A DNA stretch of 64,000 nt from a virus (taxonomy: Duplodnaviria > Heunggongvirae > Uroviricota > Caudoviricetes), in the IMG/VR virus record IMGVR_UViG_2687453454_000003, positions 1-64,000 of that record; one strand, 5' to 3'. The notes beneath the pieces were generated by a model. The model was not told where the DNA came from, searched no databases, and worked only from the letters and a program-made list of their open reading frames with translations. The position numbers were made by a program, and so were the translations under genes. Below are positions 1,776 through 59,698 of the stretch, piece after piece. The first letter of the stretch is position 1; every line of letters begins with the position of its first letter.

Positions 1776-2156
1776 TCACACCAGATACATGTGATTGGTG
1801 TACCCGCATAAAACATCGTCATAGCGCGTCCTGTGCGCATATACGCCGATAATCAACACATCACCACCACTCTGTCTCATGTAGAGAACAGTTTTATGGT
1901 ATCCCCCCGCCATCGTGTGCATACTGGTCGGACGTAGTTGCAAAATTTTTTGCAACTGATACCCCTCGCGCGCGTACTTGTCTCGAAATTGGTGTTTTGC
2001 TGTGGCAGTGATATCAGAAAAATCTTCCTGTTTCACATAAAGCGGATATGCGCGTACTGTAACGGCCCCATCAACGGGGATCGGATTTGAAATCCCGACC
2101 CAAGCTATGTACCAAATGCCATGTCTTGGATATATGATGATTGCCATTCTAAACAA
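1776..2156 (-). CDS. hypothetical protein
   Basis: ORF track only; overlaps the start of the opposing membrane-protein ORF. Confidence 0.25.
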   Translation of the reverse strand: MFRMAIIIYPRHGIWYIAWVGISNPIPVDGAVTVRAYPLYVKQEDFSDITATAKHQFRDKYAREGYQLQKILQLRPTSMHTMAGGYHKTVLYMRQSGGDVLIIGVYAHRTRYDDVLCGYTNHMYLV

Positions 2157-2175
2157 AGCTAAAGGGAGGGTTGGT

Positions 2176-2526
2176 GTGAATGCTCAGGCTGTCATCATGG
2201 TTTTCCTTGGTCTGATTGTCGCAAAACTATATCCAGACTGGTGGAAAGGGGCATTAGCAACTGTCGCCATCTATTTGCTTTTATCCGTCGTTAAGCGATC
2301 GTTCGTTAAGACCGTAAATCAAGCAAAACGTTTCTCATTTAAGAATTTAATAAACTATATTACTGGGCTTATTTTTTGCCTTTCAATTTTGATCGCCTCA
2401 GCTTTTTTGCCCGTATCAATAGCTAATTTTTTTGGCGCACCATATGAGGTAGGTTATCTATTCTCTGTTTTTTGTCTTGTTCTTTCCCTTCTTTACCTAT
2501 GGATGAGAGCAAAGAACAAAAATTAG
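2176..2526 (+). CDS. small multi-pass membrane protein
   Basis: GTG start at 2176 preceded by AAGGGAGGG Shine-Dalgarno; hydrophobic stretches consistent with 3-4 TM helices; lies directly after the gp16-like gene. Confidence 0.4.
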   Translation: MNAQAVIMVFLGLIVAKLYPDWWKGALATVAIYLLLSVVKRSFVKTVNQAKRFSFKNLINYITGLIFCLSILIASAFLPVSIANFFGAPYEVGYLFSVFCLVLSLLYLWMRAKNKN

Positions 2527-2544
2527 CCATCCATGGCTAACCAG

Positions 2545-4649
2545 TTATTGAGCTTCTTTTTGTGATGCCTGTGCGACTCTGGTGAGCGATTGTGTGACCG
2601 TACTGATCGCTCTGTCATATGCTGTGCTACCTTTTGGCGTATTTGCCAGACGTAACAAGGCATTTCGTATAACAGGGCTTTCGTATGCCTTCGCTGCTCC
2701 GCCTACGGCACCAGCAGCAGGAACAACAAACGCAGCCGTTTTTAGCATCCCCGCTAATACTGCTGCGTTTATGATGCCACCACCAACTAACAATCCATAA
2801 AGCTGCTGACCATTTAAGTTTTGAACGTTCGCTTTTGCCGCGTGTCTTGTATCGTTGAGGTATTTAATAACGCCGTCCAGTTCCTTTCCATGTACGCCTT
2901 TAAAGAAAGTTGCTGATTGCTTCCTGTTCCGGTGTAACGCATTAATAAACTTCTCAACACTGATATTTCCAGACGGATCAGTCGCCTTATCTACAGCATT
3001 CTGAACTATGGCTGCTCGTGCGTTTTGCCTACCATTGTCATCCAGAAGCCTGTAAAGCTGAGAACGTTCTGATGGGCTTTGGCTAAAAACGAGTTTTGTT
3101 ACATCCTCAGGCGTGGCCTTGCCGCTGGCTATTGCCTTTTGAACGCGCGTTCTTCCCATCATGTCATTGAATTTAGACCATGAGCGATCAACCCTTGCCA
3201 TATTAATGGCTTCGTCTGCTCCAAGATTTTTGGCTACGGCTTTTTTCATATCCGCCGTATATGCCTTGTAGATAATATCGCTGGCTTTCTGGAGCGTATC
3301 TTTATCAACAGTGTCAGATGACGCCATAAATCGCTTTCGAAGATCGGTTCTGTTTTCCCTCGCCAGACGCAGGTCATTTGGTCCGCTGGTGATATCGTCT
3401 TTAAATTGCTGCAAGACTTTTACCGCGGCTCTATCCTGAGATTTGCCCGGGCGGCTTAACACGGCAATCTGATTGTCGATAGCTTTTACCGTGTTTGAGA
3501 GATCGACAGGGGTATCCCCCATAGCGTCAATTATGCGGTTATATCGCTTTCCTGCTGCCTCAATGAATTTTTGTTGCCCTTTAGTCGCAGATTCATAAAG
3601 CTGTTTATCAGAAATGCCACCCAGACCATCGCTAAATGTTCTGACTAAATTTTCTCGTGCTTGTTGTTGATTCAGCCGATTCTTACCGGTTCCAAAAAAA
3701 GAACTCTTTCGCCTAATGTCTGAGCCTGACTCTGCATAAAGGTTTTATCTTTCAGCATGTCACTGGTCATTAACGGCAGATTTCTTTCCGATGCAAAGTC
3801 GACAGCAGCCTTTGCTTCAGGCGACATATCACCACGAACAGCCCTCGAAACCGCACTCGCTGTATTTTCCAGCCCCTTACCAATACCACCAATGCCAGCA
3901 GAAATTACCGTTTGTAACGGATCAATATCTTCTCCACCAGCAAGGCTGGTGGCTCCCTGTAGTGCTAAATCTGTAGCTGCTGATTTTCCTATGGCACCAA
4001 GCACCGTTCCAGCCCTGCCCACTGGTGTAAACGCCAACGCATTAGCAAGAAACGAAGTCAGGTCTTGCGGTGATAAACCCGGCTTGTTCAGGGCATAATC
4101 ACCTGATGGCAGAGAAACGATAGTATTCCCCTTCTCATCCTGCCTTAATGTCGCCCCCATTCCCTGAAGAATCTTTTCCTGAGACGCGTCAGAGCCGAAA
4201 AGTTGAGACCATCCAGCCTTTAGGGCATCCATGCTTAGTGAGTTCAATTCTGGGGCAGAGGTGACATTTTGCAGTCTCTCCATCTCTGGAGTCATTCGGC
4301 TTTCGCCTGTTATAGCATCGCGCATCGCAGCCCCAAGACTGGCTCCCTGTTCTGCTGAACGCTCAAGCCCCTCTCTTTGCTGAGTAGCTAACTTTGCATA
4401 CCCTGACGCAAGAGAATTATCAGATGATGTATGTTGAATATTTTGAGTTGCTGATTGGGATCGGTCTATTTCATTCGTTGATGGTAGTGGATAGGCAGCA
4501 TAAAAAGCCTGCTTAGCCTGCTCTACACTTTCTCCGGCTTGCGGGGCAACGACTTCATTGAAGTATTGCTCCTGAGCCTGCGCTTTTTGTTCTGGTGCTA
4601 ACGCCTGATACTGTGGAGAGGCGATAACATCTTTCCATGCTTTAGCCAT
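2545..4649 (-). pseudogene. P22 gp16-like ejection protein, reading frame broken at an A7/T7 run (3694-3700)
   Basis: Two 325-aa ORFs (2545..3522, 3672..4649); the downstream frame stays open and protein-like upstream through the run (..RRKSSFFGTGKNRLNQQQ..), so one indel joins them into about 700 aa. Confidence 0.5.
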
Positions 4650-6070
4650 TAATCACCCCATAGTGAAGAAAAGTTACTGCTGGCTGCTGGCTGTGATACC
4701 TGCTCAGATTGCGGCAATGTCTGCGACGAAGAAGAAGTTCCTCTGTCAACTGCTGAAATAACCCGCAAAGCATCATAAGCTCGACCAGAAGCAGCTTTCA
4801 GCGAATTGAACTGGTTTTCCATCTTCCGGCGCTTGGTATCAATGGTTTTTGTGGAGTCGCCAGGCTGAGGGAAATACATTTGATAATATTTTGACATTTC
4901 AGCAGGTGCGATAGCTGCCCCTGTTTCCTGACGGAGTATTGCCATTATTGCGTCATTAGCATTAACAACGTATTGCTGCTCTGTTGGGCTGAGCGTTAAG
5001 TTAGCCAGCGTCCCATTACCCAAAGCATTATTAATGATCGCCACTCGCTGTGGGCTAAGCTGGTCTTTCAGTGTATCTATTGAATCAAGAGCATCCCTAA
5101 CCCTGTATGCAAATCCAGCAGCTTTTTTAGCCCCTTCTGGCGACTTTTCCATGATCTTTTGGGCTGTTGGCAAAGCTATTGGACGAAACCCATCTCCAGA
5201 TATTGGCTGGTTTAGTTTTCCCTGCTCTTCACTTCCGTCTGTGTAGTATTTTGTGACAGTGCCATCATCGTTTTCTCTAACACTCATTAATTTTTTGGCG
5301 TTTGTATTAATTCCAGCCGCTGCCGCAAATGCCGCCGCCCCCTCTGGATCCGCCTTTAACATTTGAGCGTACTGATTGTAATTCTGCATTGCTGCTGTTG
5401 GTGCATATGCTGACGTTAACGCATTTGCTCGGCTAATATCCTGCCCTCTCGCCTGAAGTGCTTCGCCAGCCTGATTGCTGCGGATTGTCTCTGCCAACTT
5501 GCCACGCTCAATATCCCGACCTTCCATTTGATCTTTGATATCGAAATACTTCTCATGACCGAGAGAAAACAGTGCCATACTACCAGCAAGCCGCTGGAAT
5601 CCCTGTGGATCATTAACATGCATTTCGGCAACAGACTCAGGAGAAATTCCCAAGCGACGCATTTCATCTTCGTTATCTGCTATGAATTTTCCAAATGCCC
5701 CAGTTCCGAGCGAAGATGCGATTTGAGCACTAGTCGCAAGATGACCAATAGAATTTCTCTGGTCGTCATCAATAAAGCCCATCCCTTTCTGAACGCTTTC
5801 AAATTCTTCTGGATACTCAGAAATAAGACTGCGCATTTTGTTTCTGTCTCCAGACTCAAAAGCCCCGGCATATGCTTTCTGAAACTCTGCTTTACGCTGT
5901 TGTTGACGTGCCTGCTGATTAATCTCAGCAACGCCTCTTAGCCCCTGTAGCGCCATTAAACCTACGTTTGGGTGCTGCTGATACTGCACAGGCTGAGGAA
6001 CGGAAGAACGAGGAGCATTATCATTTTGCGGTGCCATGCTAGGCAGCCCGCCAAGTTGCCATGTCGCCAT
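4649..6070 (-). CDS. P22 gp20-like ejection protein
   Basis: 473 aa (P22 gp20 is about 471 aa) and position between gp7-like and gp16-like genes; assignment from recollection. Confidence 0.5.
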   Translation of the reverse strand: MATWQLGGLPSMAPQNDNAPRSSVPQPVQYQQHPNVGLMALQGLRGVAEINQQARQQQRKAEFQKAYAGAFESGDRNKMRSLISEYPEEFESVQKGMGFIDDDQRNSIGHLATSAQIASSLGTGAFGKFIADNEDEMRRLGISPESVAEMHVNDPQGFQRLAGSMALFSLGHEKYFDIKDQMEGRDIERGKLAETIRSNQAGEALQARGQDISRANALTSAYAPTAAMQNYNQYAQMLKADPEGAAAFAAAAGINTNAKKLMSVRENDDGTVTKYYTDGSEEQGKLNQPISGDGFRPIALPTAQKIMEKSPEGAKKAAGFAYRVRDALDSIDTLKDQLSPQRVAIINNALGNGTLANLTLSPTEQQYVVNANDAIMAILRQETGAAIAPAEMSKYYQMYFPQPGDSTKTIDTKRRKMENQFNSLKAASGRAYDALRVISAVDRGTSSSSQTLPQSEQVSQPAASSNFSSLWGD

Positions 6071-6747
6071 TAGAATCCAAGCCCCCCAACAAGACCAATA
6101 AGCCCACCACCAATAGCCCCGGCGACATTACCTATACCCGGAACAACGGAACCAAGTTGCGCACCCGCTAAAGCGCCTGATGCCGCCCCACCAATACCAC
6201 GCGCAAGACTGGATGGCTGCTGCGCCTGACCTGCACGAATAGCGCCAAGCCCCTGCAAGAGTTGCCCGGTATTATTGGCGTAGTTTTGCCCTGCTGTTGC
6301 CTGCCCTGATGCCGCATTCATCCCGACATTTAGCAGGTTTCCATAATTTTGCATTTGCCCACTGAGCCAATTGTTATAAAGCATGGGCGCAATGGAAGAT
6401 AACTGGTTACTGGTAGCTGTTGAGCCAAGCCCCCCGGTAGCTTCTGCTGAGACAAGGTTCTGATAACGGGCCTGATCTGCCTGTGTTTTATATAAACCAG
6501 AACCAAAGAAATCATTCGCGGCTTTATTCTGCCCTTCCAGAGTCATCAGTCCTTGCAGTTGTTGTAAAGCAGGCAATCCGACTTCTGCATACGGCTTGAG
6601 ATTATTCATCACCGTATTCCACTGCTCGCGCTGCAAATCAATTGCCTGCTGCTGGGCCTTCGCCTGAGCTTTAGAGGCACCACCATCACCGCCTTTTTCG
6701 TATACGGCACGATTGAGATGTTTATGAGCTATATGGGTAATTAACAT
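6070..6747 (-). CDS. P22 gp7-like ejection protein
   Basis: 225 aa (P22 gp7 is about 229 aa); Gln/Ala/Gly-rich with glycine-rich hydrophobic C-terminus; gene order 14-7-20-16 as in P22. Confidence 0.5.
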   Translation of the reverse strand: MLITHIAHKHLNRAVYEKGGDGGASKAQAKAQQQAIDLQREQWNTVMNNLKPYAEVGLPALQQLQGLMTLEGQNKAANDFFGSGLYKTQADQARYQNLVSAEATGGLGSTATSNQLSSIAPMLYNNWLSGQMQNYGNLLNVGMNAASGQATAGQNYANNTGQLLQGLGAIRAGQAQQPSSLARGIGGAASGALAGAQLGSVVPGIGNVAGAIGGGLIGLVGGLGF

Positions 6748-7202
6748 TCGCTGAATTCCTTATATTGTTGCCGAGTTAACTGATAAAGCGTTACGCCGAC
6801 GGGTTTACCACATCTGATATAAGCATCATCAAGGTGACCAACACGGGTAGCGCCAAGCAAACGGATAATTGCCCGTCCATATTTCGTGGTGTCAGGAACC
6901 ATAGTGATGCTGTTAAGGAATGGTGAGTTTTCGAGAAGCCATTTGCAGAATAATCGATGCCCTTGCAGTGCATATTCACCACGGAATCCGGGGTCGTACA
7001 CCGCATGGCATTCAACAACGCTATGCCAGAAGTTACGCACTTCATGAACGCCAGCCAGCACTAATCCTTCGTAGATGCCGAGATATACCGCATCAGGCTT
7101 GATGTAGTACGTGTGCCCCGGCTCAACAATATTTTCGGTATTGCCTGGCTCGTTAAGAAAGGCCTGTAATCGCACAGGGTTATCAATAAATTTTAGTTCC
7201 AT
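6741..7202 (-). CDS. P22 gp14-like protein
   Basis: 153 aa ORF heading the ejection cassette; assignment by position. Confidence 0.4.
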   Translation of the reverse strand: MELKFIDNPVRLQAFLNEPGNTENIVEPGHTYYIKPDAVYLGIYEGLVLAGVHEVRNFWHSVVECHAVYDPGFRGEYALQGHRLFCKWLLENSPFLNSITMVPDTTKYGRAIIRLLGATRVGHLDDAYIRCGKPVGVTLYQLTRQQYKEFSEC

Positions 7203-7218
7203 GCGATGCCATCCATTT

Positions 7219-7380
7219 TCACATACAGCCTGCCAGCGCCTTATCTATTAACCCTCGTGCAATTTCATGCAGAGTTGGCGCTACTCCAATTCCTGATTTT
7301 TTACGCTGCTCTTCCTGAATTTTCTTTATCGCTTCCATTTGCTTCTCACTTATCAATACTGGCTTTACTGAAATAGCCAT
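7219..7380 (-). CDS. small protein (53 aa), possible small regulator
   Basis: Translates to MAISVKPVLISEKQMEAIKKIQEEQRKKSGIGVAPTLHEIARGLIDKALAGCM; AAGGGGG Shine-Dalgarno; LexA-box-like site just upstream; below the 60-aa track cutoff. Confidence 0.35.
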   Translation of the reverse strand: MAISVKPVLISEKQMEAIKKIQEEQRKKSGIGVAPTLHEIARGLIDKALAGCM

Positions 7381-7395
7381 AACGCCCCCTTATAA

Positions 7396-7411
7396 CTGTA
7401 TAAAACAACAG
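7396..7411. promoter_or_regulatory. LexA (SOS) box-like palindrome CTGT-ATAAAACA-ACAG
   Basis: Matches CTGT-N8-ACAG with AT-rich spacer, 16 nt upstream of the ATG at 7380. Confidence 0.4.
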
Positions 7412-7825
7412 TTATTATAGTTTCACAAATCGCAATATTCATCATCGTAATTGCAGAATATGAAACAAATAGCACAAAAAAATGCCACCGCTCAGTAGCT
7501 GGTGGCGTCGTTCTGTGTGTCAGGTTTTGACAGGTTTTTTATGGACTCTAAAAACTATATTTATGGTGTCGCATTACTCTTCACGGCAGGCGCTTTTCAG
7601 TTCTGCCCTTGCTTCTGGCTCCATTGGTAATTTGATTCGCGATCAGCTATGCGGATGGTTTGCTGAACAGGCATAACAACTTCTCAGAGGCTGTTTTTTG
7701 AACTACGAAAATTTCGTAGTGCTCACTTTCAAAAACGTCACGCCCTTGTACACAGGATTTTACGAAAGTCTCGTAAAACACTCTCTGATGCCAGCCAGGT
7801 GTTGTGCGCATCAATTCAGTCACAT

Positions 7826-7942
7826 TGTGTTGGTTCAAAATACCGTGTTGTTGGTTCAGTGTTGGTTCAATAAAAAGAATAAAATCCTTATAAAACAATA
7901 CCCTTTACAAATTGAACCAACTGAACCAACTGAACCAACACC
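7826..7942. repeat. iteron cluster B (putative origin): 3 spaced TTGGTTCA (7829-7870) plus 3 tandem GAACCAAC (7914-7940)
   Basis: Direct reading; immediately downstream of the primase gene, as P4 ori is downstream of alpha. Confidence 0.6.
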
Positions 7943-7964
7943 TTTTCTACGCACATGAAGAAGC

Positions 7965-10724
7965 TCATTCTTCAGATGAGTTATAATCTCCTGGCTGGTA
8001 ATTGAGTACATAAACGTTTATTTGTCGTCCCTGAATACGTGGTGATTTTCTTTGGTATCCACGACCGCTGTTTGGTGGGGTTAGCATCCCGGCTTTTTTC
8101 AACACTTCAGCAAACTGTTTTGCGTTGAAACCACATGCGATCTCCTTTTCAAATGTGGCCGGGAATGTGTAGAAAATCATTGGGCTTTCGTCATGTTCTC
8201 CACGCTGACGGTATCCGGCTAAATCTTTGATGGGCAAATCTGCCGGGCTGTATGGAAATGGTGCAAAACGGCTAAGCCCATAGGCATTAAGAAATGCCTC
8301 CGTTTGTTCAATAATCTGCTGATGTTCTTTGTTACCTGTGCCGAACTCGCGCAACCATGCGTTATAGCTGTGCTGTATCGCATCACGGCATGTCTGAGCA
8401 TCCCAGCCTGTTACAACCTCGCCTAACAGCAATGCGGCCTCCAGAATGGCAAATCGCGCGGCTACACGGTGAACCTGCTCACCATAATCGGATGGGATCA
8501 GGTTTCTCCATCTGCTTTCGCAATCACGAACGGTTTTAATAGCCTGTTGCTGGTGGTCTGCCAGCCATTTAATCCACTCACGCCCGGCTGCGCCGTGGTG
8601 ATGCTGGTAAGCGTCTTTCAGTGCGTCTGCGTGCTGTTTTCCGTTCTGGTAATCGTGAAAGCGTACTGCTTTACTCAACGGAATATTCAGCAGTCGCACC
8701 AGTTGCCCGGCTTTGGTTTTTCGCCCGGAAGTAGCGATAAATGTTTCTAAATCCATTTCTCCGGTGCTGATTGCCACTGTACGCCAGCGTTTTAGATCCC
8801 GGTTTCCACCATCTTTAGCGCCTTGCAGTTTCCCTACACCGTTAAATAACGCATAGGCAGACTGTGAAACGCTGACAGGATCAGCGCCCTGACCAACTTC
8901 ATCAAGCGGCATTAGTCCGTCATTGTGGGCGGCGGCCTCATTTGCCAGCCCCAGCGCGGTTCCGTACCACGTCAGCCGCAGTAAATCAGGGTTGCCGTAT
9001 AAGCTGCTCGCCACGTTTGCCGTGGTGGTCTTACCTGCGCTCGACTGCTCATAGAAATGAATGCCGAACCCGTCAGCGCCCACCAGCCCAATCAATGGCG
9101 CTGCCAGTGCTGCGCCGATCCCGGTCATCATTGAATAGTTACCAAAGGCCAGACGCGCCACGTTATCACGCCAGCTTTTCGCGCTCCCTGAGACGGTATA
9201 TCCGGCTGCGGCTGAGCTTCTCCCGCTGAACAGCACAGGATTTTCAGGTGTTCCGATGATTTCCCCATCAGGCATGATGTACGCTCCGCATTGCCATCCA
9301 GTGGCATGAGCAACACGCCACAATTCACGAGAGCCACTGCGTTGTAGCCAGTCTGCCAGTATTGCTCTGAGGCTGCTTTTGGTCGTGACATTTACCCCAC
9401 CAGCTTTAAGTGTGCGCCATCCTTCACGTTCACCAATATCAGCCAGTGGAATGGCAGCGGTTGTCGGCGTTTCAGAACCAAACGACAGCCAGCGAAGAAT
9501 GAGATACTGGTCTTTATCGTCTCTGCCAGTACCGATAACGCTTAACGGAGAACATAACCAGCTTTCGTTATTGATGATTTCTCCACTCTGGCTGTCAGCT
9601 CTCGGAGATACCCAATAAATACCATCCTCGCGGCTTTCTATTCTTGGTTTCAGTGGGTCGGTATCCATAACCTTAAAATCGCTTCCCTCAATGGTCTGTG
9701 GCTCCTGTTTCACGCCATTACCCTGTGGTTGGTACATTGACTTATTGAACGCTTCTGTGGCGCATTTAATGCCGTGTTTTTGGTGGTAATCATTCCAGTC
9801 TGCTTTGTGATCTGTCGGGGGTAATGCCACCCATCCAGAAACAGATAAAGCTGCTTTTTCTGCTGCTATTCTCCCCGTGTTTTGTCTTCCTTCGCTGTGG
9901 TCGTTATCCGCAGCAATGATGATTTGTGCTGAAGGAAATTTATCCCGCAGTACCTGGGCGACATATAACAGGTTCCCGGCATCAATCGCCGCCACTGTCA
10001 GCGCCTCTGGACGAATTAAATGGGCAGATAATGCCGTTGCCAGCCCTTCTGCGATTAAGATGCTCTGTGTTGTTTCTGGCGCGTTTATGGCGTGATATGC
10101 CCCCCGCTTTGCTGAACCTGTCAGGAGTCTTTTTTCACCATGTGATGTAATAGTCTGTGCTGCTGTGACTGCGCCGGATTTATCCACCAGCGCCAGCAAC
10201 AGAGATCCATCGGGCAACACGGGGAATGTAAAATCACCTACCCCTTTCGCAACCAGATAATCAGATTTGCCGTTTACAGCCTTTCTGCGCATGTCATCAA
10301 ACTGACGGGAAAACGTATCCCGTCTTTGTTGTTCGTCCTTCTCTGCCCTTTTCAGGCGCTCCTGTTCGCGTCGCTGGCGCTCGGTTTCCAGTTGTTCCCG
10401 TTTCTGGCTGGTGGCTTCTGGTGTTTCCGTTGTCCGGTAATCAATACCCAGAACATCAGCGGCAAGAAGCGCCGCCTCTGTTGTGTCGCAGTTATTTACG
10501 CGTTTAATTAAATCCAGCCCATCACCAGCGCCGCACTGATTACAGATGAAGCTACCGCGCCCGTTGTCATCGAACCGGAATCGATCTTTGCCCCCACATG
10601 CAGGGCAGGGAGCATGACGGCGCGGAGAGTCAGGGACATTTATGTTCAGGCAGCCCAGCACATGAGGCCAGTTGTTTTCAGACGCACTGATAACCTGACG
10701 GATAAGATCAATGTTTCGCATCAC
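7965..10724 (-). CDS. P4 alpha-like primase-helicase
   Basis: 919 aa; N-terminal zinc-binding CPACGG..FRFDD...FICNQCG; Walker A-like SSAGKTT and Walker B-like LMPLDEVGQ. Confidence 0.85.
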   Translation of the reverse strand: MMRNIDLIRQVISASENNWPHVLGCLNINVPDSPRRHAPCPACGGKDRFRFDDNGRGSFICNQCGAGDGLDLIKRVNNCDTTEAALLAADVLGIDYRTTETPEATSQKREQLETERQRREQERLKRAEKDEQQRRDTFSRQFDDMRRKAVNGKSDYLVAKGVGDFTFPVLPDGSLLLALVDKSGAVTAAQTITSHGEKRLLTGSAKRGAYHAINAPETTQSILIAEGLATALSAHLIRPEALTVAAIDAGNLLYVAQVLRDKFPSAQIIIAADNDHSEGRQNTGRIAAEKAALSVSGWVALPPTDHKADWNDYHQKHGIKCATEAFNKSMYQPQGNGVKQEPQTIEGSDFKVMDTDPLKPRIESREDGIYWVSPRADSQSGEIINNESWLCSPLSVIGTGRDDKDQYLILRWLSFGSETPTTAAIPLADIGEREGWRTLKAGGVNVTTKSSLRAILADWLQRSGSRELWRVAHATGWQCGAYIMPDGEIIGTPENPVLFSGRSSAAAGYTVSGSAKSWRDNVARLAFGNYSMMTGIGAALAAPLIGLVGADGFGIHFYEQSSAGKTTTANVASSLYGNPDLLRLTWYGTALGLANEAAAHNDGLMPLDEVGQGADPVSVSQSAYALFNGVGKLQGAKDGGNRDLKRWRTVAISTGEMDLETFIATSGRKTKAGQLVRLLNIPLSKAVRFHDYQNGKQHADALKDAYQHHHGAAGREWIKWLADHQQQAIKTVRDCESRWRNLIPSDYGEQVHRVAARFAILEAALLLGEVVTGWDAQTCRDAIQHSYNAWLREFGTGNKEHQQIIEQTEAFLNAYGLSRFAPFPYSPADLPIKDLAGYRQRGEHDESPMIFYTFPATFEKEIACGFNAKQFAEVLKKAGMLTPPNSGRGYQRKSPRIQGRQINVYVLNYQPGDYNSSEE

Positions 10725-11079
10725 CGTACCCCATGTGGTCTATAGCGTTTGCGATATGGCTAACCAGCATCTGCCACTTGGTTATTCCGTAATCAGTCAG
10801 CATGCCATCATTGTTTAGCCACATATCAAATTCAGCGGTTGTCGCAAGTTTCCACTTATCGCCGTGGACAGTCCTCATTGCTGGGTACATGAATGCGCAA
10901 ATCAGATCACAAACATCTGACGGCTTCAGAGATGTAGTAATGGTGCGTCCCTCTGGCGTCTGAATTGCCATTTTCTCTTCACCAGTAGAATGAAGGTTAT
11001 GAATCCACACAGCACCAGCAATCTTTGCCACCTGCTCTCCGATTGCGGAGCTAAGCGCCATTTCTGCATTTTCACGCAT
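10708..11079 (-). CDS. hypothetical protein
   Basis: ORF track; part of a tightly packed minus-strand operon upstream of the primase. Confidence 0.4.
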   Translation of the reverse strand: MRENAEMALSSAIGEQVAKIAGAVWIHNLHSTGEEKMAIQTPEGRTITTSLKPSDVCDLICAFMYPAMRTVHGDKWKLATTAEFDMWLNNDGMLTDYGITKWQMLVSHIANAIDHMGYGDAKH

Positions 11080-11413
11080 GAGAACCTCCCGCTACAGTTG
11101 CGCCCATGTCATTAACCATGCTTTGCCATATCTCACGCCCGACGTCAGTCAATCCGTCCTTAGTGACGCAACGCTCAAGAAGCTCGATCCCCACGGTTTC
11201 CCACTGCGGGTAGAACACTTTCATGGCTGCCAGTGTGTAGCTATCGATCAGGCTGCGAACGCCTTTTACTCCATTAACGATTTCCACACGTACGGCCTCG
11301 CCGTCCGCATCAACCATGAAATAGTCCCCGCCGCTGGTGGAGGTAATGTGGTTATACAGTGCCGACGCATACTTATTTGCCAGCGCATTCAGTCGGAAAT
11401 TTTTAGTAATCAT
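11072..11413 (-). CDS. hypothetical protein
   Basis: ORF track; operon context. Confidence 0.4.
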   Translation of the reverse strand: MITKNFRLNALANKYASALYNHITSTSGGDYFMVDADGEAVRVEIVNGVKGVRSLIDSYTLAAMKVFYPQWETVGIELLERCVTKDGLTDVGREIWQSMVNDMGATVAGGSHA

Positions 11414-11423
11414 GGCTCCATCC

Positions 11424-12026
11424 TCAGTGCGTCACTGGTTCCGCTGGCATGCCGTTTTCATTCAGTTCAGCTATAAAGCTGTTGTGAAGTTCAGCAAGCG
11501 TTTCACGACCAAATGGAGTCAGTGCTCCTTGTTCCACATCCATCATGGCTCTGTAGAAAATGATGGCGCGTTCTGTGCCAGACTCGATGCCAAAACGTTC
11601 TATCATCGCTCCCTCAATGTTGTTTGCCATAGCGAGGCGCTCTGCTACTGGATACAGCGGCATGGCGACGATGCCGTTGGAATAAACAGCCACTTCGGAA
11701 GGATTGCCAGTATCATCAATGATGCTGACAGTGCCGTTTTCCTCTCTCATTTCCAGCATGAATACTGTTGCGATCAGCCATCTCCACATAATGACGTTAT
11801 GCTGTGATGTGTAATCGAAATATCCCTGGTTGCCGCCATCGGCAATAGCGAGATGTATTGACATACCTTCATCTGGTTTATCGTCATAATCCCCGGCATC
11901 CAGACGATTTACGGCATCAATATATGAGACGGCCTCAACGCGTTCTGTCATGCCATCGTTGCTGCGGTACATGATGTTTACGCCGTCAGGCGTTGCTTCT
12001 GTATGGAAAGTTAAGAAATTATTCAT
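11424..12026 (-). CDS. hypothetical protein (start trimmed to internal Met)
   Basis: ORF 11424..12131; internal start MNNFLTFHTE avoids overlap with the upstream gene. Confidence 0.35.
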   Translation of the reverse strand: MNNFLTFHTEATPDGVNIMYRSNDGMTERVEAVSYIDAVNRLDAGDYDDKPDEGMSIHLAIADGGNQGYFDYTSQHNVIMWRWLIATVFMLEMREENGTVSIIDDTGNPSEVAVYSNGIVAMPLYPVAERLAMANNIEGAMIERFGIESGTERAIIFYRAMMDVEQGALTPFGRETLAELHNSFIAELNENGMPAEPVTH

Positions 12027-12240
12027 GTTTCGCCTCGCCTGAATGATTCTGTAACTCATATTTGCCCAACAATTCGTCCGCTTCCTGAATAGCTTCTGGT
12101 ACGCCATTGAGCAGTGACATAACCGCGCCAATCATTAACTTGTCTCTGTTGCTGGGGCTGGCCCCTTCAAGCCAGAACCCTAAAACAGTCTGAACCTGTT
12201 CGATGCGACATTGCGCTTCAATGAGCTGGATGTTGGTCAT
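12019..12240 (-). CDS. hypothetical small protein
   Basis: ORF track. Confidence 0.35.
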   Translation of the reverse strand: MTNIQLIEAQCRIEQVQTVLGFWLEGASPSNRDKLMIGAVMSLLNGVPEAIQEADELLGKYELQNHSGEAKHE

Positions 12241-12500
12241 TTCGCACTCTCCACATCGATTAAACCGATATCTATCAGGGAGGTAACTTTTTGTAGCCAG
12301 CTATTGATTACTGTCGCCTGTTCCCCGCCCACCGAGGGAACAATCTCATTCATCACATGAACCAGACCTGTGCGCGCTCTGGTAAGCCGTTCAGTCGCGC
12401 AATCTGCGGGAGTGAATGTGTCTGGATATGGCTCTTCACGCCCCAGCAATGATTCAATTTCCAGCTCACACGGATGACGATAAATTAAGTTGATATTCAT
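12237..12500 (-). CDS. hypothetical small protein
   Basis: ORF track; start/stop overlaps with neighbours. Confidence 0.4.
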   Translation of the reverse strand: MNINLIYRHPCELEIESLLGREEPYPDTFTPADCATERLTRARTGLVHVMNEIVPSVGGEQATVINSWLQKVTSLIDIGLIDVESAK

Positions 12501-12691
12501 TTTTCACCCCCAAGAATTACCAGCTCGGCACGGGCATCGTTAACCAAAGATGAGCACGCTTTAATCGCATCCACGACATCAGTAGCGTCCATTTCTTCAG
12601 CCGAAAGACTGACAGCAACCAGGACAGCCGCTGCTTGCTCGATTAATTGAAGTGCGGACGTAAGGCGAGGGGTATTAATTGAGTTATTCAT
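12497..12691 (-). CDS. hypothetical small protein
   Basis: ORF 12497..12748 trimmed to internal Met. Confidence 0.35.
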   Translation of the reverse strand: MNNSINTPRLTSALQLIEQAAAVLVAVSLSAEEMDATDVVDAIKACSSLVNDARAELVILGGEK

Positions 12692-12902
12692 TGGTTGCCC
12701 CCGTTTTTCCTGGCATTTCGCCACCTTCCAGCAGGAAATGAACGTCACGAACGGCGAGATCCAATATCGCGAGTAACGCCTTCAGTCTTTCGTCTCGTGA
12801 GGGAGAGTTGCTCACCAGAATGTCGTTAATCACTTCTGTCAGTGTGATGATCTGGCTTGTGCGTTCGAGGGGATCCATATGCACATCGTAGGTTTTAATC
12901 AT
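12684..12902 (-). CDS. hypothetical small protein (72 aa)
   Basis: C-terminal part of the 355-aa six-frame ORF; ATG at 12902 overlaps the stop of the upstream 64-aa gene. Confidence 0.35.
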   Translation of the reverse strand: MIKTYDVHMDPLERTSQIITLTEVINDILVSNSPSRDERLKALLAILDLAVRDVHFLLEGGEMPGKTGATNE

Positions 12903-13089
12903 GTGCCACCTCCATGCGGATACGACCAGCAAAAAAGCAGATGTGATCGCGCACCAGAGAACGGCGAGCATCGCGTTCAGACTCGGCAGCAATATGATGA
13001 ATTTTGGCGGTAATTGTCGGGCAATCGCGGCGAACTGCGGCGATAATCCAGATAAATTGCGGTTTTTGGGTAGGGGTAGTAGCCAGCAT
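12895..13089 (-). CDS. hypothetical small protein (64 aa)
   Basis: ATG at 13089 preceded by AGGAGG (13097-13102) with 7-nt spacing. Confidence 0.4.
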   Translation of the reverse strand: MLATTPTQKPQFIWIIAAVRRDCPTITAKIHHIAAESERDARRSLVRDHICFFAGRIRMEVAHD

Positions 13090-13291
13090 GTGGCAGCCTC
13101 CTTGTACTGGGAGTTCTTCCCACCACCGGAGCTGCGAAACTCGCTGGTGGTGGACTGAACAGAGTTCGCAGTACCGGCGTACAAGGAAACCGGCCAGCCT
13201 TTCGGCTGCCCTGTCCAGCCCACCATAATTTTGCAAGCGACGCGGATTATAACCGCATCACTGAAAAAAGTGTGAGTCTGGCTAACGGCAC

Positions 13292-13313
13292 AAAAAAAGA
13301 CGCTCGGCGCGTC
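13292..13313 (-). terminator. intrinsic terminator-like hairpin GACGC-GCCGA-GCGTC followed by T7
   Basis: Minus-strand stem-loop followed by seven U; sits in the leader upstream of the small-gene operon. Confidence 0.4.
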
Positions 13314-13744
13314 ATGTGTCGCCTCGTACATTTCCGGGCTGCGAAACCCGGCACCCGTTTTATGAGGTGCCTTATAACCATAAACCGTGTTGCCGCATAA
13401 CGGCAAGCTCTTTTTTATGGACTCCGAAAACTCACTATTGGAAGCACCAGATGCACAATACATCGCGCTCATTTCGTTAACGTCGCGCGTGTGGACGAAG
13501 GTTTTTGTGGAGTCACTACGCGAGCAGAGAAAGCCATCTACGACCAGAAATTCTCTGGCGCAGCCGCCGACCTTCTCAACGCTAACACCATCGACCGTAA
13601 TTTCTGACATAGTTAAGGCATCCGCTCCCACCACCAGAAAATGATAAACTTTGCTTGTATCTGCTGTATTAATGCCAGACTTTGCTGTCATATTGCTGGA
13701 TTTTGGCGACATACCAGCCAGTGAAAATATCTTCTTCTGGACGG

Positions 13745-13927
13745 TTAGCATTTGTTAACCTCCGCGAACTCCTTCATGAAGCGCGCCAGCGGTTGTACGC
13801 ATGGCGATTGATACCCGTCGCGATAAAACGTCACTCGGTTGTGAGACACGCTTTCGACAGTAACGAGTGCTCCGTGGGCATCCTTGTAGCGTTTTTGAGG
13901 TTGTGGTGTTCCTGTCGGCTTAAACAT
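13745..13927 (-). CDS. hypothetical small protein
   Basis: ORF 13745..14014 trimmed to Met at 13927, which overlaps the stop of the antirepressor gene. Confidence 0.3.
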   Translation of the reverse strand: MFKPTGTPQPQKRYKDAHGALVTVESVSHNRVTFYRDGYQSPCVQPLARFMKEFAEVNKC

Positions 13928-14753
13928 GGACCACCTCCAGACGCTTAGCGAGCCAGCGTTGCGACAGGCGGGTGAGTTCTCCTTTGCGCTGCTCATATTC
14001 CATGCCCATATCAATTAACGTGATATTGGTGCTTTCGAGATATGAGAGGTGCTCAAGTTGTTCTGCGTTCATATGGTCGCGAGGTTCGCCAGAATAGCCA
14101 TTTATCCGCGCCCACTGCTTAGCAGTTAGCCCACCAAGAACGATACGAGAAATCATATTGCTCTCGTTTGTGTAGTGGTGTTGCTGCGTCGTTTTCCCCT
14201 GCTCGGCACGGGCCATATTCAGCGCATCGCACATTGGCTTAAAGTTGTTTGCGGCACTGATACGGGCTTTTAGCTGGCGACGATAGCGGGCGGCGATTTC
14301 AGGAACGCTACGCTGTAATTCTTCCTCGCACTGGATGAAATAACGGCGGATAGCGCGACCCTGATCATTGCGTTCGATCATTGCCAGTTCTTTCGCCATT
14401 CCGACACTTAACAGATAGTCTTTGCCGGGTCTGCCAGACTGCTTAATCTTTCTGTAAGCCGCGCCATTCGGGCTTTTCCCCAAATTTGGGGAAATAGTTT
14501 TATGGACTGAGTAATCGTGCCCAATGGTGAAGTCATATTCAGAGATGCGATCAGTGATCCATGTAGAGAAGTCTTTTCCCACGCCCAACGCTTTGTGTAA
14601 CGCTTTTGCGCTAACAATATTGGTTTCACGCCCACCGATATGACCAGGAATAACCGGGACAATTGCGGCAAATTCATTACCGTTAATTGTGCTCAGAGAG
14701 GCGTTCAGATGAGGGGCGGCCTCAGAAATTAATCTGCTTTTTTCGATGTTCAT
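13920..14753 (-). CDS. phage antirepressor (Rha/AntA-type N-terminal domain)
   Basis: 277 aa; KALHKALGVGKDFSTWITDRISEYDFTIGHDY matches the DNA-binding domain pattern of Rha/Ant antirepressors. Confidence 0.6.
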   Translation of the reverse strand: MNIEKSRLISEAAPHLNASLSTINGNEFAAIVPVIPGHIGGRETNIVSAKALHKALGVGKDFSTWITDRISEYDFTIGHDYSVHKTISPNLGKSPNGAAYRKIKQSGRPGKDYLLSVGMAKELAMIERNDQGRAIRRYFIQCEEELQRSVPEIAARYRRQLKARISAANNFKPMCDALNMARAEQGKTTQQHHYTNESNMISRIVLGGLTAKQWARINGYSGEPRDHMNAEQLEHLSYLESTNITLIDMGMEYEQRKGELTRLSQRWLAKRLEVVHV

Positions 14754-14765
14754 TTTCAGTCTCCG

Positions 14766-15197
14766 TTAAGCGGCGTTAAACGCGTCCGGGTAGAGTTTCA
14801 GAATGTCGGCAATTTCCTGCTGAGAAAGTCCGTTGTGATCATTTATGTTCGCAAGATGGTTAATATGAGTGATCACTTTCAGAACATCACCACGGCAGGA
14901 GAAACGGTAGCGAAGGTGTGTTCCGATACCATCAGGATTCTTTTCGTCGATACGCTCCAGAGTGATTCCAAGCTGGCGTTCTAACTCTGTTGCATAGTTA
15001 CGACCAGAAGACAGACGGCAGTAGCGAAGAATGTCATTTTCTGTCCATCCCTCTATACCAGTACGCAGCATATAGACTCTGGCACGATGCTTTTTCGGTG
15101 TGCGCTTTGGTGCTTGAAGGGATTTTGTAAGGGGCGTAACATCAGATACGCGAATATCTGAATTAGCCGCCTGTAATGGGCGGTTTTTCTTATTCAT
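14766..15197 (-). CDS. hypothetical protein (143 aa)
   Basis: ORF track; immediately downstream of alpA. Confidence 0.4.
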   Translation of the reverse strand: MNKKNRPLQAANSDIRVSDVTPLTKSLQAPKRTPKKHRARVYMLRTGIEGWTENDILRYCRLSSGRNYATELERQLGITLERIDEKNPDGIGTHLRYRFSCRGDVLKVITHINHLANINDHNGLSQQEIADILKLYPDAFNAA

Positions 15198-15394
15198 TAC
15201 GCTACCTCGCCACGCGACTCAGCGATGCGCTGATTAATCCATTCTTCAATTTCACTTTCAATAAACGCAATTGATCGGCTTCCAATCTTTACAGATTGAG
15301 GGAATCGCTGTTCTTTGATGAGCCGATAAATCCACGCTTTGCTGTAACCAGTACGGCGTTGAACCTCAGAAAGACGAATAAATGATTGAGACAT
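15197..15394 (-). CDS. alpA: AlpA-family phage transcriptional regulator
   Basis: 65 aa; LSEV.RRTGYSK.WIYRLIK...FP..VKIG.RS..F...E...WI pattern. Confidence 0.7.
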   Translation of the reverse strand: MSQSFIRLSEVQRRTGYSKAWIYRLIKEQRFPQSVKIGSRSIAFIESEIEEWINQRIAESRGEVA

Positions 15395-47416: not shown

Positions 47417-48469
47417 TTATTTCCCCACCAGCTCGTTTATCTCTTTCACTGTCTGATTAAACCGCTCTGACTCAAGCTCAACACCTAAGGCCCGACGCCC
47501 CAGCGCCATTGCTGCTTTTATTGTGGAACCGGATCCCATAAAAAAATCAGCAACCAGATCACCTGGTCGACTACTGGCATTGATTATTTGCCTGAGCATA
47601 TCCGCCGGTTTCTCACACGGATGTTTACCCGGGTAGAACTGAACGGGTTTATGCATCCAGACATCGGTATAAGGCACGGAGACTGATACGGAGAAATAGC
47701 GCCGGAGAGATTTAAACTCATCCAGCAATTCAGAATATTTACGATTCAGTGAATCATAAGATGCCACCAGCTGGTGGTGCGGTTGTTCCAGTTGTTGTTC
47801 CTGAAACTTCTCTGCCGCTATACGGGAAAACAGTGCCTGTAACTTCCGATAGTCAGCCTCATTCGGCAACTGCCACTGACTGGCACCAAACCAGTGGGAA
47901 ACCATATTTTTCTTACCTGTGGCTTTGGCAATTTGTTTTGCCGTTATACCCAGTTCGGCACGAGCATCCCTGAAATACGATATCAGCGGTGCCATTATGT
48001 GCTGTTTGAGTTCCCTTTCTTTTGCTGCATAGCCGTCACTTTTGCCGCGATATGGCCCCTGGTAATGTTCAGCAAACAGAACTCGCTCTGTGGCAGGAAA
48101 ATATGCACGCAGACTTTCTTTATTACACCCATTCCAACGTCCGGACGGCTTCGCCCAGATGATATGGTTAAGCACGTTGAAACGTTCACGCATCATGATC
48201 TCAATATCAGATGCCAGGCGATGCCCACAGAACAGGTAAAGGCTTCCGGCAGGTTTTAACACCCGCCAGAACTGGGCCAGACAGTGGTCCAGCCACTTAA
48301 GGTAATCTTCGTCCCCTTTCCACTGATTGTCCCAGCCGTTGGGTTTCACCTTGAAGTACGGCGGATCGGTAACAATCAGGTCAATGGAATCATCAGGCAG
48401 GGACTGAATAAAATGCAGGCAATCAGCGTTGATTAAATCAACACTGTTTATTTTTACAGTATTTTTCAT
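47417..48469 (-). CDS. DNA N6-adenine/N4-cytosine methyltransferase, orphan
   Basis: 350 aa; motif IVTDPPY; no adjacent restriction endonuclease. Confidence 0.8.
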
Positions 48470-48837: not shown

Positions 48838-49103
48838 GACATACCAATAACTCTTGTCTAAAAAGCCAGCAAGATAAAAAGTCAGTATTCACGACCACCA
48901 GCGTGTTTACTGTACTGCACCAAGTTTACAGGTACAAAAAAACCGCTCAGCGGCGGGTTTAAGTTGTGTGGCGAAGTAACCACTCTTAACACGATACAAT
49001 ACTTTTTGCGTACGCGTTAAGATTTTTTTATAATTACTTACCTTTCTCACACCAAATGTAAAAGCAATATTTTTTGATAATCCTGTTGTTTAAAGGGAAT
49101 AGC

Positions 49104-52100
49104 ATGAAATCAATTGTACACTTATCCGACTTACACTTATCAGACTCAAAAAAATATGGTTTTCACTGGAAGAAAGCCAAAGAACTGGTCACAGTATTAG
49201 TTAATGATATACATTCATTAAGTAAAGAAAACAACCTCCAGATAGATGCCATTTTTTTTACTGGGGATTTAACGTTTTCTGGAACCAAAGAGCAATTTCA
49301 ACTATTTGATGAACATTTCCTCTCTCCACTTATTCAAAAGCTGAACATCAGTAAAAAAAACATTTTTATAACCCCAGGCAATCATGATGTGGACAGAAGT
49401 AAAGTTCATCCACTTGAAAAACAACTGCGAACTGGTTCGGACGAAAATTTCATATCATCATACTTTGATATGATAAATAATGGAGAGTATTCATGGGAAC
49501 GTCTCTACGAGTACTGTGAATATAATAAAACAATATTAGATCATCATTCTGATGTTGAACAATCTGGACGCATGATTACATGCTTTAAAGTAACAAACAA
49601 ATTATACGTCGTTAGCGTAAATAGCGCATGGTTAGCTATGGATGATAATGATATTGGTAACTTACGAATTACCCAAAAGCAAATTGATTTTATCAATCGT
49701 GCCAAAATACCTTCTGATGCAAAAATAATATTATTATGCCATCATCCTTTAGATTGGTTGAATAAGAATGATCGTGACATTTTTTCAACATTTATTGAAA
49801 AAAAAGTTTCAATGTTCTTTTTTGGTCATATGCATGATTTTAAACAAAAACTAGAATCTAGTTTTTGTGAAAACATCACCCTCTTTTTGCAAGCAGGAAC
49901 TTTGGATACTAGTGAAAATGTATCAGGCTATTCATTAATAAATTTTAATAGTTCAAATGTCATATCAGACGGAAGAATTTTTTATAGAAAATATAATAAA
50001 GAAAAAACATGCTATGAACCATGGGAAGAAAGAGGAAATGGTGGTGTTTTTGATTTCACCACTGAGAAAACTCTAACTTTTGACTCTGAAAAATTTGCAA
50101 CATTATCTAATGAGATTCTAGAGAAAACTGATAAGGATTTATTAATTAACATTGGAATCTCTGATGAAAAGAAAAAAAGTCTAAGAACCCTATTTACTGA
50201 ACCAAATTTCCTTGAATTTGCTCTTGGAGCCATGCCTTCTATGGAGATTAAGTCCACACAAGAATTACTAGAAGGACGAAACAACCTTGTGATTGTAGGA
50301 AACCATAGCTCAGGTAAAACATCTCTTTTAAAATACTTATTCATTAAGAGTCTAGAAAAACAGGCCAGCAAAGACTTCAGTAACTTTGCATTTTTCTTAG
50401 ATTTAAATGCAATTGAATTAAATAGCTTAAATACAATTGTAAGCGCATTATGTACACAATATTTCAATGCAGATTCGACCACATCTTTTGAAGAAAAAAT
50501 TAAAAAAATGTTACATGAGGGAAGATGTGTTATATATATTGATAATCTGGACAATATAAATACAAAAGAACAATGTGTAATTTCTGATTTTTTTATAAAA
50601 TTCAAAGAATGTAGATTTATCGTAACTGCTGGCTATAATAATTCAGATCTGGTAGTTAAAATATTATCAGATGAAAGCAAAGCTAAATTTCATGCAATTG
50701 CTATAGGTTCATTACGCAGATCTAATGTTCGCGATATTGTATCAAGATGGCACGACACAACATCACAAAATATAATATATAAAGAAATCACGCGAACAAT
50801 CAACAATTCGCAACTTCCTCATAATTATTTTACATACTCAATGCTTTTAGCTATTTATGAAGTTGATCATGACGTTAAAGGAATATTAAGTGAGTCTGAT
50901 ATTATAGAAAACTTCATAGAAATTTTGCTTCGTAAACATTTTATGGATACTCCGCCTAATAAGCCACAATTTAAAGAACTTCGACATTTTCTTGGATATT
51001 TAGGATTTACATTATTCAAAAACAAATGTAATTTTATTTCAAATAATGAACTTCTGCAGACTGCAATAATTTTCAATAGAGATACCATGCATGATTATCA
51101 AGTAGAAGACTATATAAAACCATTAAAAGAATGTGGAATATTGAAAGAAGAGCTATGTAATGTGATTTTCTCGCAGCCTTGCTTTTTATACTATTCCATC
51201 GCTTATTTCATGAAGCATAACGAAGAGCTAAAGAAAGAAATTTTATCCGATAATAATTACCTACATCTACATAAAGTTATTGAATACTATTCATCGCAGA
51301 ACTCATCTAGTCTTGATTTATTATACTTACTTAAAAAGAAGACTAATGCAATCAAATCTTCTTTATCTGAACGAATGCTCGAAGATAAGGGAATAAATAT
51401 TGAAGATATAAAGATTGAAGACTCTAATACTTTCTCTATTTTAGATATGGTATCAACCCAAGATGATTTCGAAAAAAAGATAGAATCACTCCGTGCAGAT
51501 AGAGAAAAAGATGACGCGCGACTAGATGAATTATCACCTTTATCTGATAAAGATAAAAAAGCTAATATATCAAATGTTAGAGCTGAAGGTAATAATAATC
51601 TGTTACATGATCTTATTAACACTTTATCTCTTTATGCAAGGGTATTCCGTAGTACTGAATTATCTATGGAAAGAGAAAATATATTAAATATATTTAATGA
51701 CCTTGTAAAGGGTTATGTTTTTTACATGAAAGCGTCACTAGTACTAATGGATGATTCATTTGTTCTTCCAGTAATACTCCCTGCATTAGAAAAGAAAATG
51801 CAAGAGGATAAATTAACCGATAACGAAAGGCAACGAGTTTTTGAAATGTTTAAACTAGTATTGTCTTTAGTTCGCTCAATGATCCCAAATAACATACAGT
51901 TTATTATGAGCAATGACTTAAGCTCGAAAAAACCACGTATTGCAAACATTATTACTGAATCAAAAGACTCAAATAGCAATCCTGTAGAAAAGGCTATTTT
52001 AACTTTCACCTTAATGGATATTAAAGATGAAATGGTTATACAATTAGCTAACGATTTAGCAAAGATACAAAACAAAGTTGTTCAAGAATCTCTTTTCTTC

Positions 52101-59005: not shown

Positions 59006-59698
59006 ATGAACATAGGAAACCGAGTCAGACAACTTCGCCAGGCGAAGAACATGAAAATCGCCGATCTCGCTGAAGCAATAGGAGTGGATGCGGCGAATAT
59101 CTCACGCCTGGAAACAGGTAAGCAGAAACAATTCACTGAACAAGCCCTGAGTAATATTGCCAGGAGCTTAGGTGTTGATATTGCTGATCTCTTTACCTCA
59201 GACGTCAAAAGTAATACTGTATGTAAAAACAGTATTAGTGAGGATGTTGCGCAGGTGAAGGATGTATTCCGTATTGAAATGCTGGATGTCAGTGCCAGTG
59301 CGGGAAATGGCCTTATCCAGGGCGGTGATGTCATTGATGTGATTCATGCCATTGAATACAGAACTGATAATGCTGTATCGATGTTTGGCGGACGGCCAGC
59401 CAATCACATTAAAGTTATCAACGTTCGTGGGGACAGTATGTGTCCAACCATTGAGCCAGGAGATCTCATCTTCGTTGATGTCAGTATCAATCAGTTTGAT
59501 GGAGATGGTATCTATGTATTTGGTTTTGATGATAAAATTTATGTCAAACGACTGCAAATGATACCTGACAAACTACTGGTGATTTCTGATAACCAGATTT
59601 ACCGTGAATGGGGAATTACCAGCGAAAATGAACACCGGTTTATGGTCTTTGGAAAGGTCTTAATCAGCCAGTCACAAACCCTTAAGCGACACAATTAA
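59006..59698 (+). CDS. CI-like repressor (HTH plus S24 LexA-like peptidase domain)
   Basis: 230 aa; N-terminal HTH NRVRQLRQAKNMKIADLAEAIGV; C-terminal VRGDSMCPTIEPGDLIFVD ... KR catalytic Ser/Lys pattern. Confidence 0.85.
   Translation: MNIGNRVRQLRQAKNMKIADLAEAIGVDAANISRLETGKQKQFTEQALSNIARSLGVDIADLFTSDVKSNTVCKNSISEDVAQVKDVFRIEMLDVSASAGNGLIQGGDVIDVIHAIEYRTDNAVSMFGGRPANHIKVINVRGDSMCPTIEPGDLIFVDVSINQFDGDGIYVFGFDDKIYVKRLQMIPDKLLVISDNQIYREWGITSENEHRFMVFGKVLISQSQTLKRHN

Follow-up and report, generated by a model that had tools for sequence, protein, structure and literature searches.

A candidate LexA operator at the promoter of an ejection-protein operon in an EcCIMP1-type satellite of Escherichia coli

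The ejection operon, its island and its promoter

In the 64,000-nt stretch of DNA analysed here (the window), a 4.9-kb operon of tightly packed or overlapping genes lies past a primase gene (7965-10724). Its first gene, on the minus strand like the rest of the operon, is a 53-aa ORF (p53; 7219-7380) with no family assignment, preceded by the Shine-Dalgarno sequence AGGGGG, read from the sequence at 7385-7390 on the same strand. Family matches identify the next three products as a DUF2824 protein (phrog_651, head morphogenesis; 6741-7202), a P22 gp7-like ejection protein (6070-6747) and a P22 gp20-like ejection protein (Inj_translocase; 4649-6070), and a PHROG match identifies the last as a gp16-like DNA transfer protein (phrog_770; 2545-4649). 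An intrinsic terminator on the minus strand (GCCACC...GGTGGC followed by a T-run, 7476-7506) stops transcription arriving from the primase side, and a predicted intrinsic terminator (2521-2542, minus strand) closes the operon. The small gene and the ejection genes thus form one terminator-bounded unit, in line with an earlier annotation made from the letters of the window (the sequence-only reading), in which the small gene heads the ejection cassette. The gp16-like gene is split by a 1-nt frameshift into two 325-aa ORFs (3672-4649 and 2545-3522). The frameshift is a 1-nt indel relative to strain EC26, whose own copy is interrupted by an IS66-family element, and the cassette thus seems to be losing its last gene in several strains.

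The 53-aa protein gave no match in Pfam, PHROG or PDB sequences, and a tblastn search of 50,697 phage genomes returned nothing; its relatives are confined to the Enterobacterales and carry no family annotation. An AlphaFold (AF2) model with a pLDDT of 85 has an extended N-terminus followed by two helices, a coil-helix-helix arrangement that would be compatible with a ribbon-helix-helix monomer. Profile comparison with Arc gave a probability of 0.2%, and the best Foldseek hits of the model, to TCP-domain transcription factors, were not significant (E = 2.6).

The ejection genes noticed in the sequence-only reading are present, but the cassette is owned by a phage-inducible chromosomal island (PICI) of the EcCIMP1 type and not by a phage. 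Matches of 100% show this region of the window to be chromosomal DNA of E. coli, and the LexA of the host can for this reason be taken to have E. coli specificity; a 75-nt promoter segment occurs in 346 of 5426 complete E. coli genomes, NC101 among them. The RefSeq gene set of an identical copy in strain EC26 comprises an integrase, an HTH regulator, an AntA/AntB antirepressor, an Ash-family protein, a TOPRIM/DUF927 primase, the ejection genes and a PerC-family regulator, and Pfam searches of the window itself recover the primase, AntA and Ash domains. According to the EC26 and MP1 annotations, the island has the integrase, AlpA-type regulator, primase and length of about 20 kb that characterise PICIs, and in the same RefSeq annotations it lacks capsid, terminase and lysis genes.

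EcCIMP1 itself is a PICI of E. coli MP1 whose excision and transfer by Kapi1, a temperate P22-like phage, follow treatment with mitomycin C, Kapi1 being mitomycin C-inducible (PMC11773190). The two islands are elements of the same type: window positions 5910-15388 are 98.4% identical to EcCIMP1 and the integrase end is 98.5% identical, and EcCIMP1 carries the identical 53-aa protein, promoter and LexA-type box described below. They differ in the distal ejection genes (window 2101-5910), which cannot be aligned to EcCIMP1, in the frameshifted gp16-like gene and in the lambdoid prophage that adjoins the island in the window. Helper-dependent excision and transfer are known for EcCIMP1 with Kapi1, and the window variant is likened to it by sequence. 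The DUF2824 and DNA-transfer genes downstream of the EcCIMP1 primase have been listed as candidate packaging or morphogenesis genes (PMC11773190). The ejection cassette of Kapi1 contains the same families in the same order as the island (phrog_651/DUF2824-type, gp7-, gp20- and gp16-type), and the DUF2824 region of the island is about 90% identical to Kapi1 DNA. In Kapi1, however, they are late genes within the structural operon and lack a promoter of their own, a 53-aa leader gene and a LexA box.

Upstream of the 53-aa gene, a perfect -10 hexamer, TATAAT, can be read on the minus strand at 7414-7419, and from its position the transcription start is predicted at about 7406-7409. The -35-like hexamer ATGAAT (7437-7442, minus strand), separated from it by a 17-bp spacer, is weak and agrees with the consensus at only 3 of 6 positions, which is why a consensus promoter scan (default settings, at least 4/6 matches) called no promoter here. 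We nevertheless infer a sigma-70 promoter from the perfect -10 hexamer, from the need for a new start past the terminator and from conservation. Two 15-bp inverted repeats, neither assigned to a strand, accompany it: an operator-like proximal repeat TTGCGATTTGTGAAA (TTKCR-N5-YGMAA; 7421-7435) within the -35/-10 spacer, and a distal repeat TTTCATATTCTGCAA (7451-7465) 30 bp upstream of the first. The CI protein of Kapi1 was considered as a binder of these repeats and rejected: the operator regions of Kapi1 hold P22-type ATTTAAGA..TCTTAAAT sites, and TTKCR-N5-YGMAA is not enriched in the Kapi1 genome (36 sites found against 30 expected).

Several repeats and remnants surround the module. A 65-nt inverted repeat (92% complementary) occurs at 312-376 and 7882-7946 and contains three tandem GTTGGTTCA iterons. 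The copy at 7882-7946 lies directly past the primase gene and is origin-like, the copy at 312-376 lies beside a perC-like gene, and together the two bracket the entire module of 53-aa gene and ejection genes. The interval 7647-7898, between the ori-like iterons and the terminator, begins like the region preceding the PerC-like gene in related islands such as L008 (MIYKEIILIIEPTLNQQ...). The PerC-like ORF itself is absent downstream, and the perC-like gene of the window island sits at its far end (1-282).

A LexA-type box at the promoter and in related islands

The 16-mer CTGTATAAAACAACAG at 7396-7411 is a palindrome of the form CTGT-N8-ACAG with an AT-rich spacer, exactly where the sequence-only reading had recognised an E. 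coli SOS box; the full 20-mer, AACTGTATAAAACAACAGTT, occupies 7394-7413 (a predicted LexA box with no strand assigned) and reads AACTGTTGTTTTATACAGTT on the gene strand. One half is imperfect, CAACAG on the plus strand or CTGTTG on the gene strand. The proposed overlap of box and promoter is likely as well: the -10 hexamer abuts the box on its upstream side and the predicted start falls inside it. The distance from the box to the ATG of the 53-aa gene, given before as 16 nt, is 15 nt, and the site is indeed close upstream of that gene. This arrangement of a box adjoining a conserved TATAAT, 15 nt from the start codon, occurs at a promoter whose -35 hexamer is weak and for which the scan made no call.

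To score the box we used the Berg-von Hippel heterology index (HI) on 20-mers, in which lower values lie nearer to the sites of the reference matrix. The matrix was built from 20 E. coli SOS boxes (PMC3009722, Tables 4 and 7), with the outermost bases of lexA2 and uvrA supplied separately, and its scale, based on these 20 sites, differs from that of Lewis et al. 1994. On this scale AACTGTATAAAACAACAGTT has an HI of 5.25, between recA (5.23) and uvrD (5.29). The reference boxes themselves range from 0.39 to 9.6 (0.7 to 12.8 when left out one at a time), and the island box outscores 12 of the 20 in the leave-one-out comparison. With a strand-symmetrised matrix it is less outstanding, at 7.95, and still within the reference range of 1.97-12.54.

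The 64 kb contain three instances of the bare pattern CTGT-N8-ACAG, where 0.70 are expected, and 4 of 100 shuffles of the window contain at least three. For the bare pattern, then, the earlier estimate of about one chance match in 64 kb is reasonable, but it does not extend to the score of the full 20-mer. A first-order Markov simulation of 19.2 Mb, matched to the window in composition, produced no site with an HI of 5.26 or below, and sites with HI ≤ 8 occurred in it at 0.033 per 64 kb; the box is rarer than base composition predicts, and the chance expectation for such a site is far below one per window. Three sites in the window have HI ≤ 5.3, namely the island box and two others (at 48442 and 59215), both of which lie in the neighbouring lambdoid prophage. 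Apart from the box, no site in the 28.6-kb EcCIMP1 locus has an HI under 12, and the genome of the helper Kapi1 holds no such LexA-like site, its best HI being 14.6. A weaker LexA-like site, CCCTGTATGCAAATCCAGCA (5101-5120, HI 8.4), lies within the gp20-like gene and is also found in the related island L002; the simulation gives about 0.26 sites with HI ≤ 10 per 64 kb.

To place the promoter in a wider context, we compared 148 related loci that came from metagenomes and viral contigs as well as from genomes. Their usual layout is a primase gene, often SSB-like and PerC-like genes, and then the promoter, the 53-aa gene and a variable cargo. When 21 representative orthologous promoters, ranging from Escherichia to Photorhabdus, are aligned, the conserved blocks are both 15-bp repeats, the TATAAT hexamer (kept in nearly all 21) and CTGTAT, the left half of the box, with two variable bases between TATAAT and CTGTAT. 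The 15-bp motif has 478 strand-matches in the -120 to 0 regions, against 80 in the other approximately 1.08 Mb of locus sequence.

The right half of the box is more variable across the family. The E. coli-type islands have the canonical CTG-N10-CAG form, CTGTTGTTTTATACAG, and a second lineage keeps CTGT...ATACAG with another spacer (CTGTATCGTTATACAG). Canonical CTG-N10-CAG boxes (HI 4.5-9) occur further in a small number of islands of Pantoea, Lonsdalea and Photorhabdus, and in Leclercia the box has decayed to TTGT...AGAG (HI 13.5). A large group of Klebsiella/Raoultella type instead has CTGTATAAATATCAGGAGG, a CTG-N9-CAG form with an HI of 12-16 whose CAG is fused to the Shine-Dalgarno sequence and which, judged by its spacing, should not bind LexA. 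This N9 form is found about 25 nt upstream of the small gene in L005-L008, L013, L016 and other loci, and N9 spacing prevails in most of the remaining genera. In most of the distant relatives just the left half is retained, with CTGTAT at a constant distance from the -10 hexamer, and the spacing is one base short.

Cargo classes were assigned to the 148 loci by tblastn. Among islands with P22-type cargo, 22 of 23 unique promoter variants have the CTG-N10-CAG form, while for other identified cargo the unique promoter-plus-cargo combinations number 39 with N9, 4 with N10 and 7 with neither, a contrast that is confounded by relatedness. Within the E. coli clade, polymorphism was counted after anchoring the sequences on a 12-mer upstream of the box, which avoids circularity. 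The 17 unique E. coli-type variants show polymorphism in about 16 of the 52 upstream columns compared with 0 of 16 columns of the box core, for which simple arithmetic from the column counts gives a probability of about 0.003 under a uniform rate. Because the core is invariant in this clade while neighbouring promoter positions vary, the box appears to be under selection.

Probable LexA control and its alternatives

These features, considered together, make it likely that the palindrome is a functional LexA operator of a sigma-70 promoter and that the SOS response turns the ejection operon on. SOS control had been proposed in the sequence-only reading, and the checks on the sequence that were suggested there all favour it. 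In the mechanism we propose, the box would span approximately positions -6 to +14 of the promoter ATGAAT-17-TATAAT, in the post-ori region of the island, and this promoter would drive the 4.9-kb operon encoding the 53-aa protein, the DUF2824 protein and the gp7-, gp20- and gp16-like ejection proteins. LexA bound as a dimer at the box would obstruct RNA polymerase in an undamaged cell. Upon DNA damage, RecA* would cause LexA to cleave itself, which would free the promoter, and the same signal would induce a P22-like helper prophage through cleavage of its own CI, such that the ejection proteins of the satellite would be made while helper virions assemble. The presence of two further conserved operator-like repeats in the promoter, one of them within the -35/-10 spacer, makes it likely that LexA is not the sole control and implies at least one further regulator; LexA is probably one input of a multi-input promoter.

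The conservation of the left half beyond the canonical boxes invites a different explanation, in which the conserved element is TATAAT-NN-CTGTAT, acting as core promoter, initial transcribed sequence or half-site for an island or helper protein, and the palindrome is incidental, with LexA having no regulatory role. CTGTAT indeed keeps its fixed register in the 21 representative promoters whether or not a partner half-site stands at the canonical distance, some 39 unique variants have the CTG-N9-CAG form, and the two operator-like repeats point to other proteins as regulators of this promoter. In the clade of the window, however, the right half, ATACAGT, is separate from the Shine-Dalgarno sequence and lies upstream of it, unfused. 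With the left half fixed, an ATACAG at exactly the right distance would arise by chance in about 1 of 4096 cases, and it has been kept in two lineages whose spacers differ. The N9 15-mer, for its part, does not recur in the related loci within 4 kb to either side, where a repeat would hint at a regulon, and we know of no other E. coli protein that recognises CTGTAT-N4-ATACAG, which counts against an incidental palindrome. We consider this explanation unlikely. Likelier than chance or an RNA structure, though in itself improbable, is the idea that LexA binds but matters little, with an island- or helper-dependent factor acting through the 15-bp repeats and SOS alone being insufficient. It draws on the two conserved repeats, one of them inside the spacer, on the weak -35 hexamer, and on the behaviour of EcCIMP1 alpA, which depends on the helper and is unmoved by mitomycin C in a non-lysogen (PMC11773190). 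Selection, as argued from the absence of polymorphism in the box core of the E. coli clade, speaks against a negligible role for LexA, and a subordinate LexA would refine the preferred reading of LexA control more than it would exclude it.

The palindrome might also act in RNA, as a hairpin of the 5' leader affecting mRNA stability or translation, and the leader can fold into a 6-bp stem with an 8-nt loop. This fold is unexceptional (-8.2 kcal/mol, z = -0.85), given that 39 of 200 shuffles fold equally well or better; a start about 7 nt past the -10 hexamer would fall in the stem, leaving the hairpin incompletely transcribed, and Rfam gives no credible match in 7000-8200. An RNA hairpin is accordingly a very improbable explanation. 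A chance match with no function, for which the 0.7 bare CTGT-N8-ACAG patterns expected per window could be cited, has still less to recommend it and is hardly credible, given a 20-mer score that went unreached in the 19.2 Mb of simulated sequence, a site without equal in the 28.6 kb that surround EcCIMP1 and placed precisely at the promoter, and the conservation of the box within its clade.

Control of the ejection operon by LexA would still leave room for the helper in the rest of the island cycle. EcCIMP1 alpA needs the helper, and mitomycin C in a non-lysogen does not trigger it (PMC11773190). Since alpA answers to the helper and not to DNA damage itself, SOS alone may not suffice for the island cycle. 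If LexA control is real, the island would read DNA damage directly for one operon and read the helper for its master regulator, alpA.

Known parallels and LexA-like sites in the neighbouring prophage

[quoted passage not shown] 2007) and which forms a post-replication packaging and interference module encoding TerS, capsid-size redirection and interference proteins. In both cases a satellite module that follows the replication genes and origin is placed under the host SOS repressor, in the E. coli island by prediction, and damage that induces the helper prophage leads, or would lead, to expression of the module. The position is also comparable, as the box lies at the first promoter past the primase gene and the ori-like iterons. 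The differences are considerable: SaPIs have Gram-positive hosts, another LexA motif and sequences that are not homologous, and in place of homologues of the SaPI TerS, capsid-size or interference genes the E. coli operon has DUF2824 and P22 gp7-, gp20- and gp16-like genes. SaPI control has been shown experimentally, whereas that of the E. coli island is predicted from sequence. Because genes and motif differ, the resemblance is a functional analogy and not membership.

With the canonical SOS operators of E. coli (recA, uvrD, yebG, polB and others) the island box has in common the CTGT-N8-ACAG core, the AT-rich spacer, the HI range and, by prediction, the overlap with a promoter; it differs in lying on a mobile element and not at a DNA-repair gene, and in its one imperfect half-site. 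LexA-repressed genes are also known from prophages, where the summary in PMC8072944 names the Gifsy dinI homologues and antirepressors, and Fels-2 tum. Like these, the ejection genes of the island would be mobile-element genes wired to the LexA of the host and not to a cleavable phage repressor, but the Gifsy and Fels-2 genes trigger or modulate induction, whereas those of the island encode virion ejection proteins. The name LexA has 0 occurrences in the EcCIMP1 paper (PMC11773190), and in the literature searched, LexA and E. coli PICIs are mentioned together solely through citation of the SaPI paper. The operon is probably a LexA-controlled satellite module for which the SaPIs provide a known precedent and whose E. 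coli case is new, and if borne out it would be a Gram-negative counterpart of SaPI operon I. EcCIMP1 offers an experimentally tractable E. coli satellite in this respect, one whose "DNA transfer" genes have so far been described as candidates (PMC11773190).

The same promoter and small gene also precede other kinds of cargo. PHROG matches, made for a few representatives, identify a phrog_418 internal virion protein together with a large lytic internal or tail protein in some islands, and tape-measure proteins (phrog_1107), a lytic tail protein and a baseplate hub (phrog_196) in others; examples are L003:4262-7761, L008:4159-7908 and L010:4153-6369, from loci (L003-L148) that span many Enterobacterales. 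Each cargo type is a protein that accompanies or precedes the DNA during injection, a family-level pattern that draws on these matches and on the tblastn classification of the 148 loci. No description of a shared promoter and small gene with delivery-protein cargo was found in the literature searched. A more tentative proposal, which we regard as possible but far from established, is that the LexA box is a lineage-specific addition to a conserved promoter and 53-aa head that drives helper-type injection proteins. Satellites of this family might thereby bring their own delivery proteins, either equipping satellite particles or sabotaging those of the helper, and the lineage with P22-type cargo might have been tied to SOS. 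An island family that carries helper-type DNA-delivery proteins is relevant to the ways in which satellites make use of virion assembly or disturb it.

The two other low-HI sites of the window belong to the neighbouring lambdoid prophage. One of them, TACTGTATGTAAAAACAGTA (59215-59234, HI 2.3), is a near-consensus LexA box inside the ORF of a cI-like repressor (59006-59698), at a point corresponding to the linker that joins the HTH and S24 domains. The cI of Shigella phage SfII, which is 90.7% identical, has TACTGTATATAAAAACAGTA in this position, a sequence identical to the umuD and sbmC boxes (HI 0.39). A box is thus kept in SfII while flanking codons differ, and possible roles include a roadblock or an internal promoter. 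Just past the cI gene are two TTGCA-N5-CGCAA sites (59754-59768 and 59778-59792) that resemble the island repeats and are probably the left operators of the prophage; the likeness may be coincidental, the motif being degenerate (6 found against 2.5 expected).

The remaining site, CACTGTTTATTTTTACAGTA (48442-48461, HI 5.1), lies over codons 3-9 of a gene (47417-48469, minus strand) that encodes an N6/N4 DNA methylase and is found immediately upstream of the lysis genes of the prophage. The divergent neighbour of this gene (49074-52256) encodes a protein of 1060 aa whose domains, metallophosphoesterase and NACHT/STAND NTPase, form a combination that occurs in anti-phage STAND proteins.
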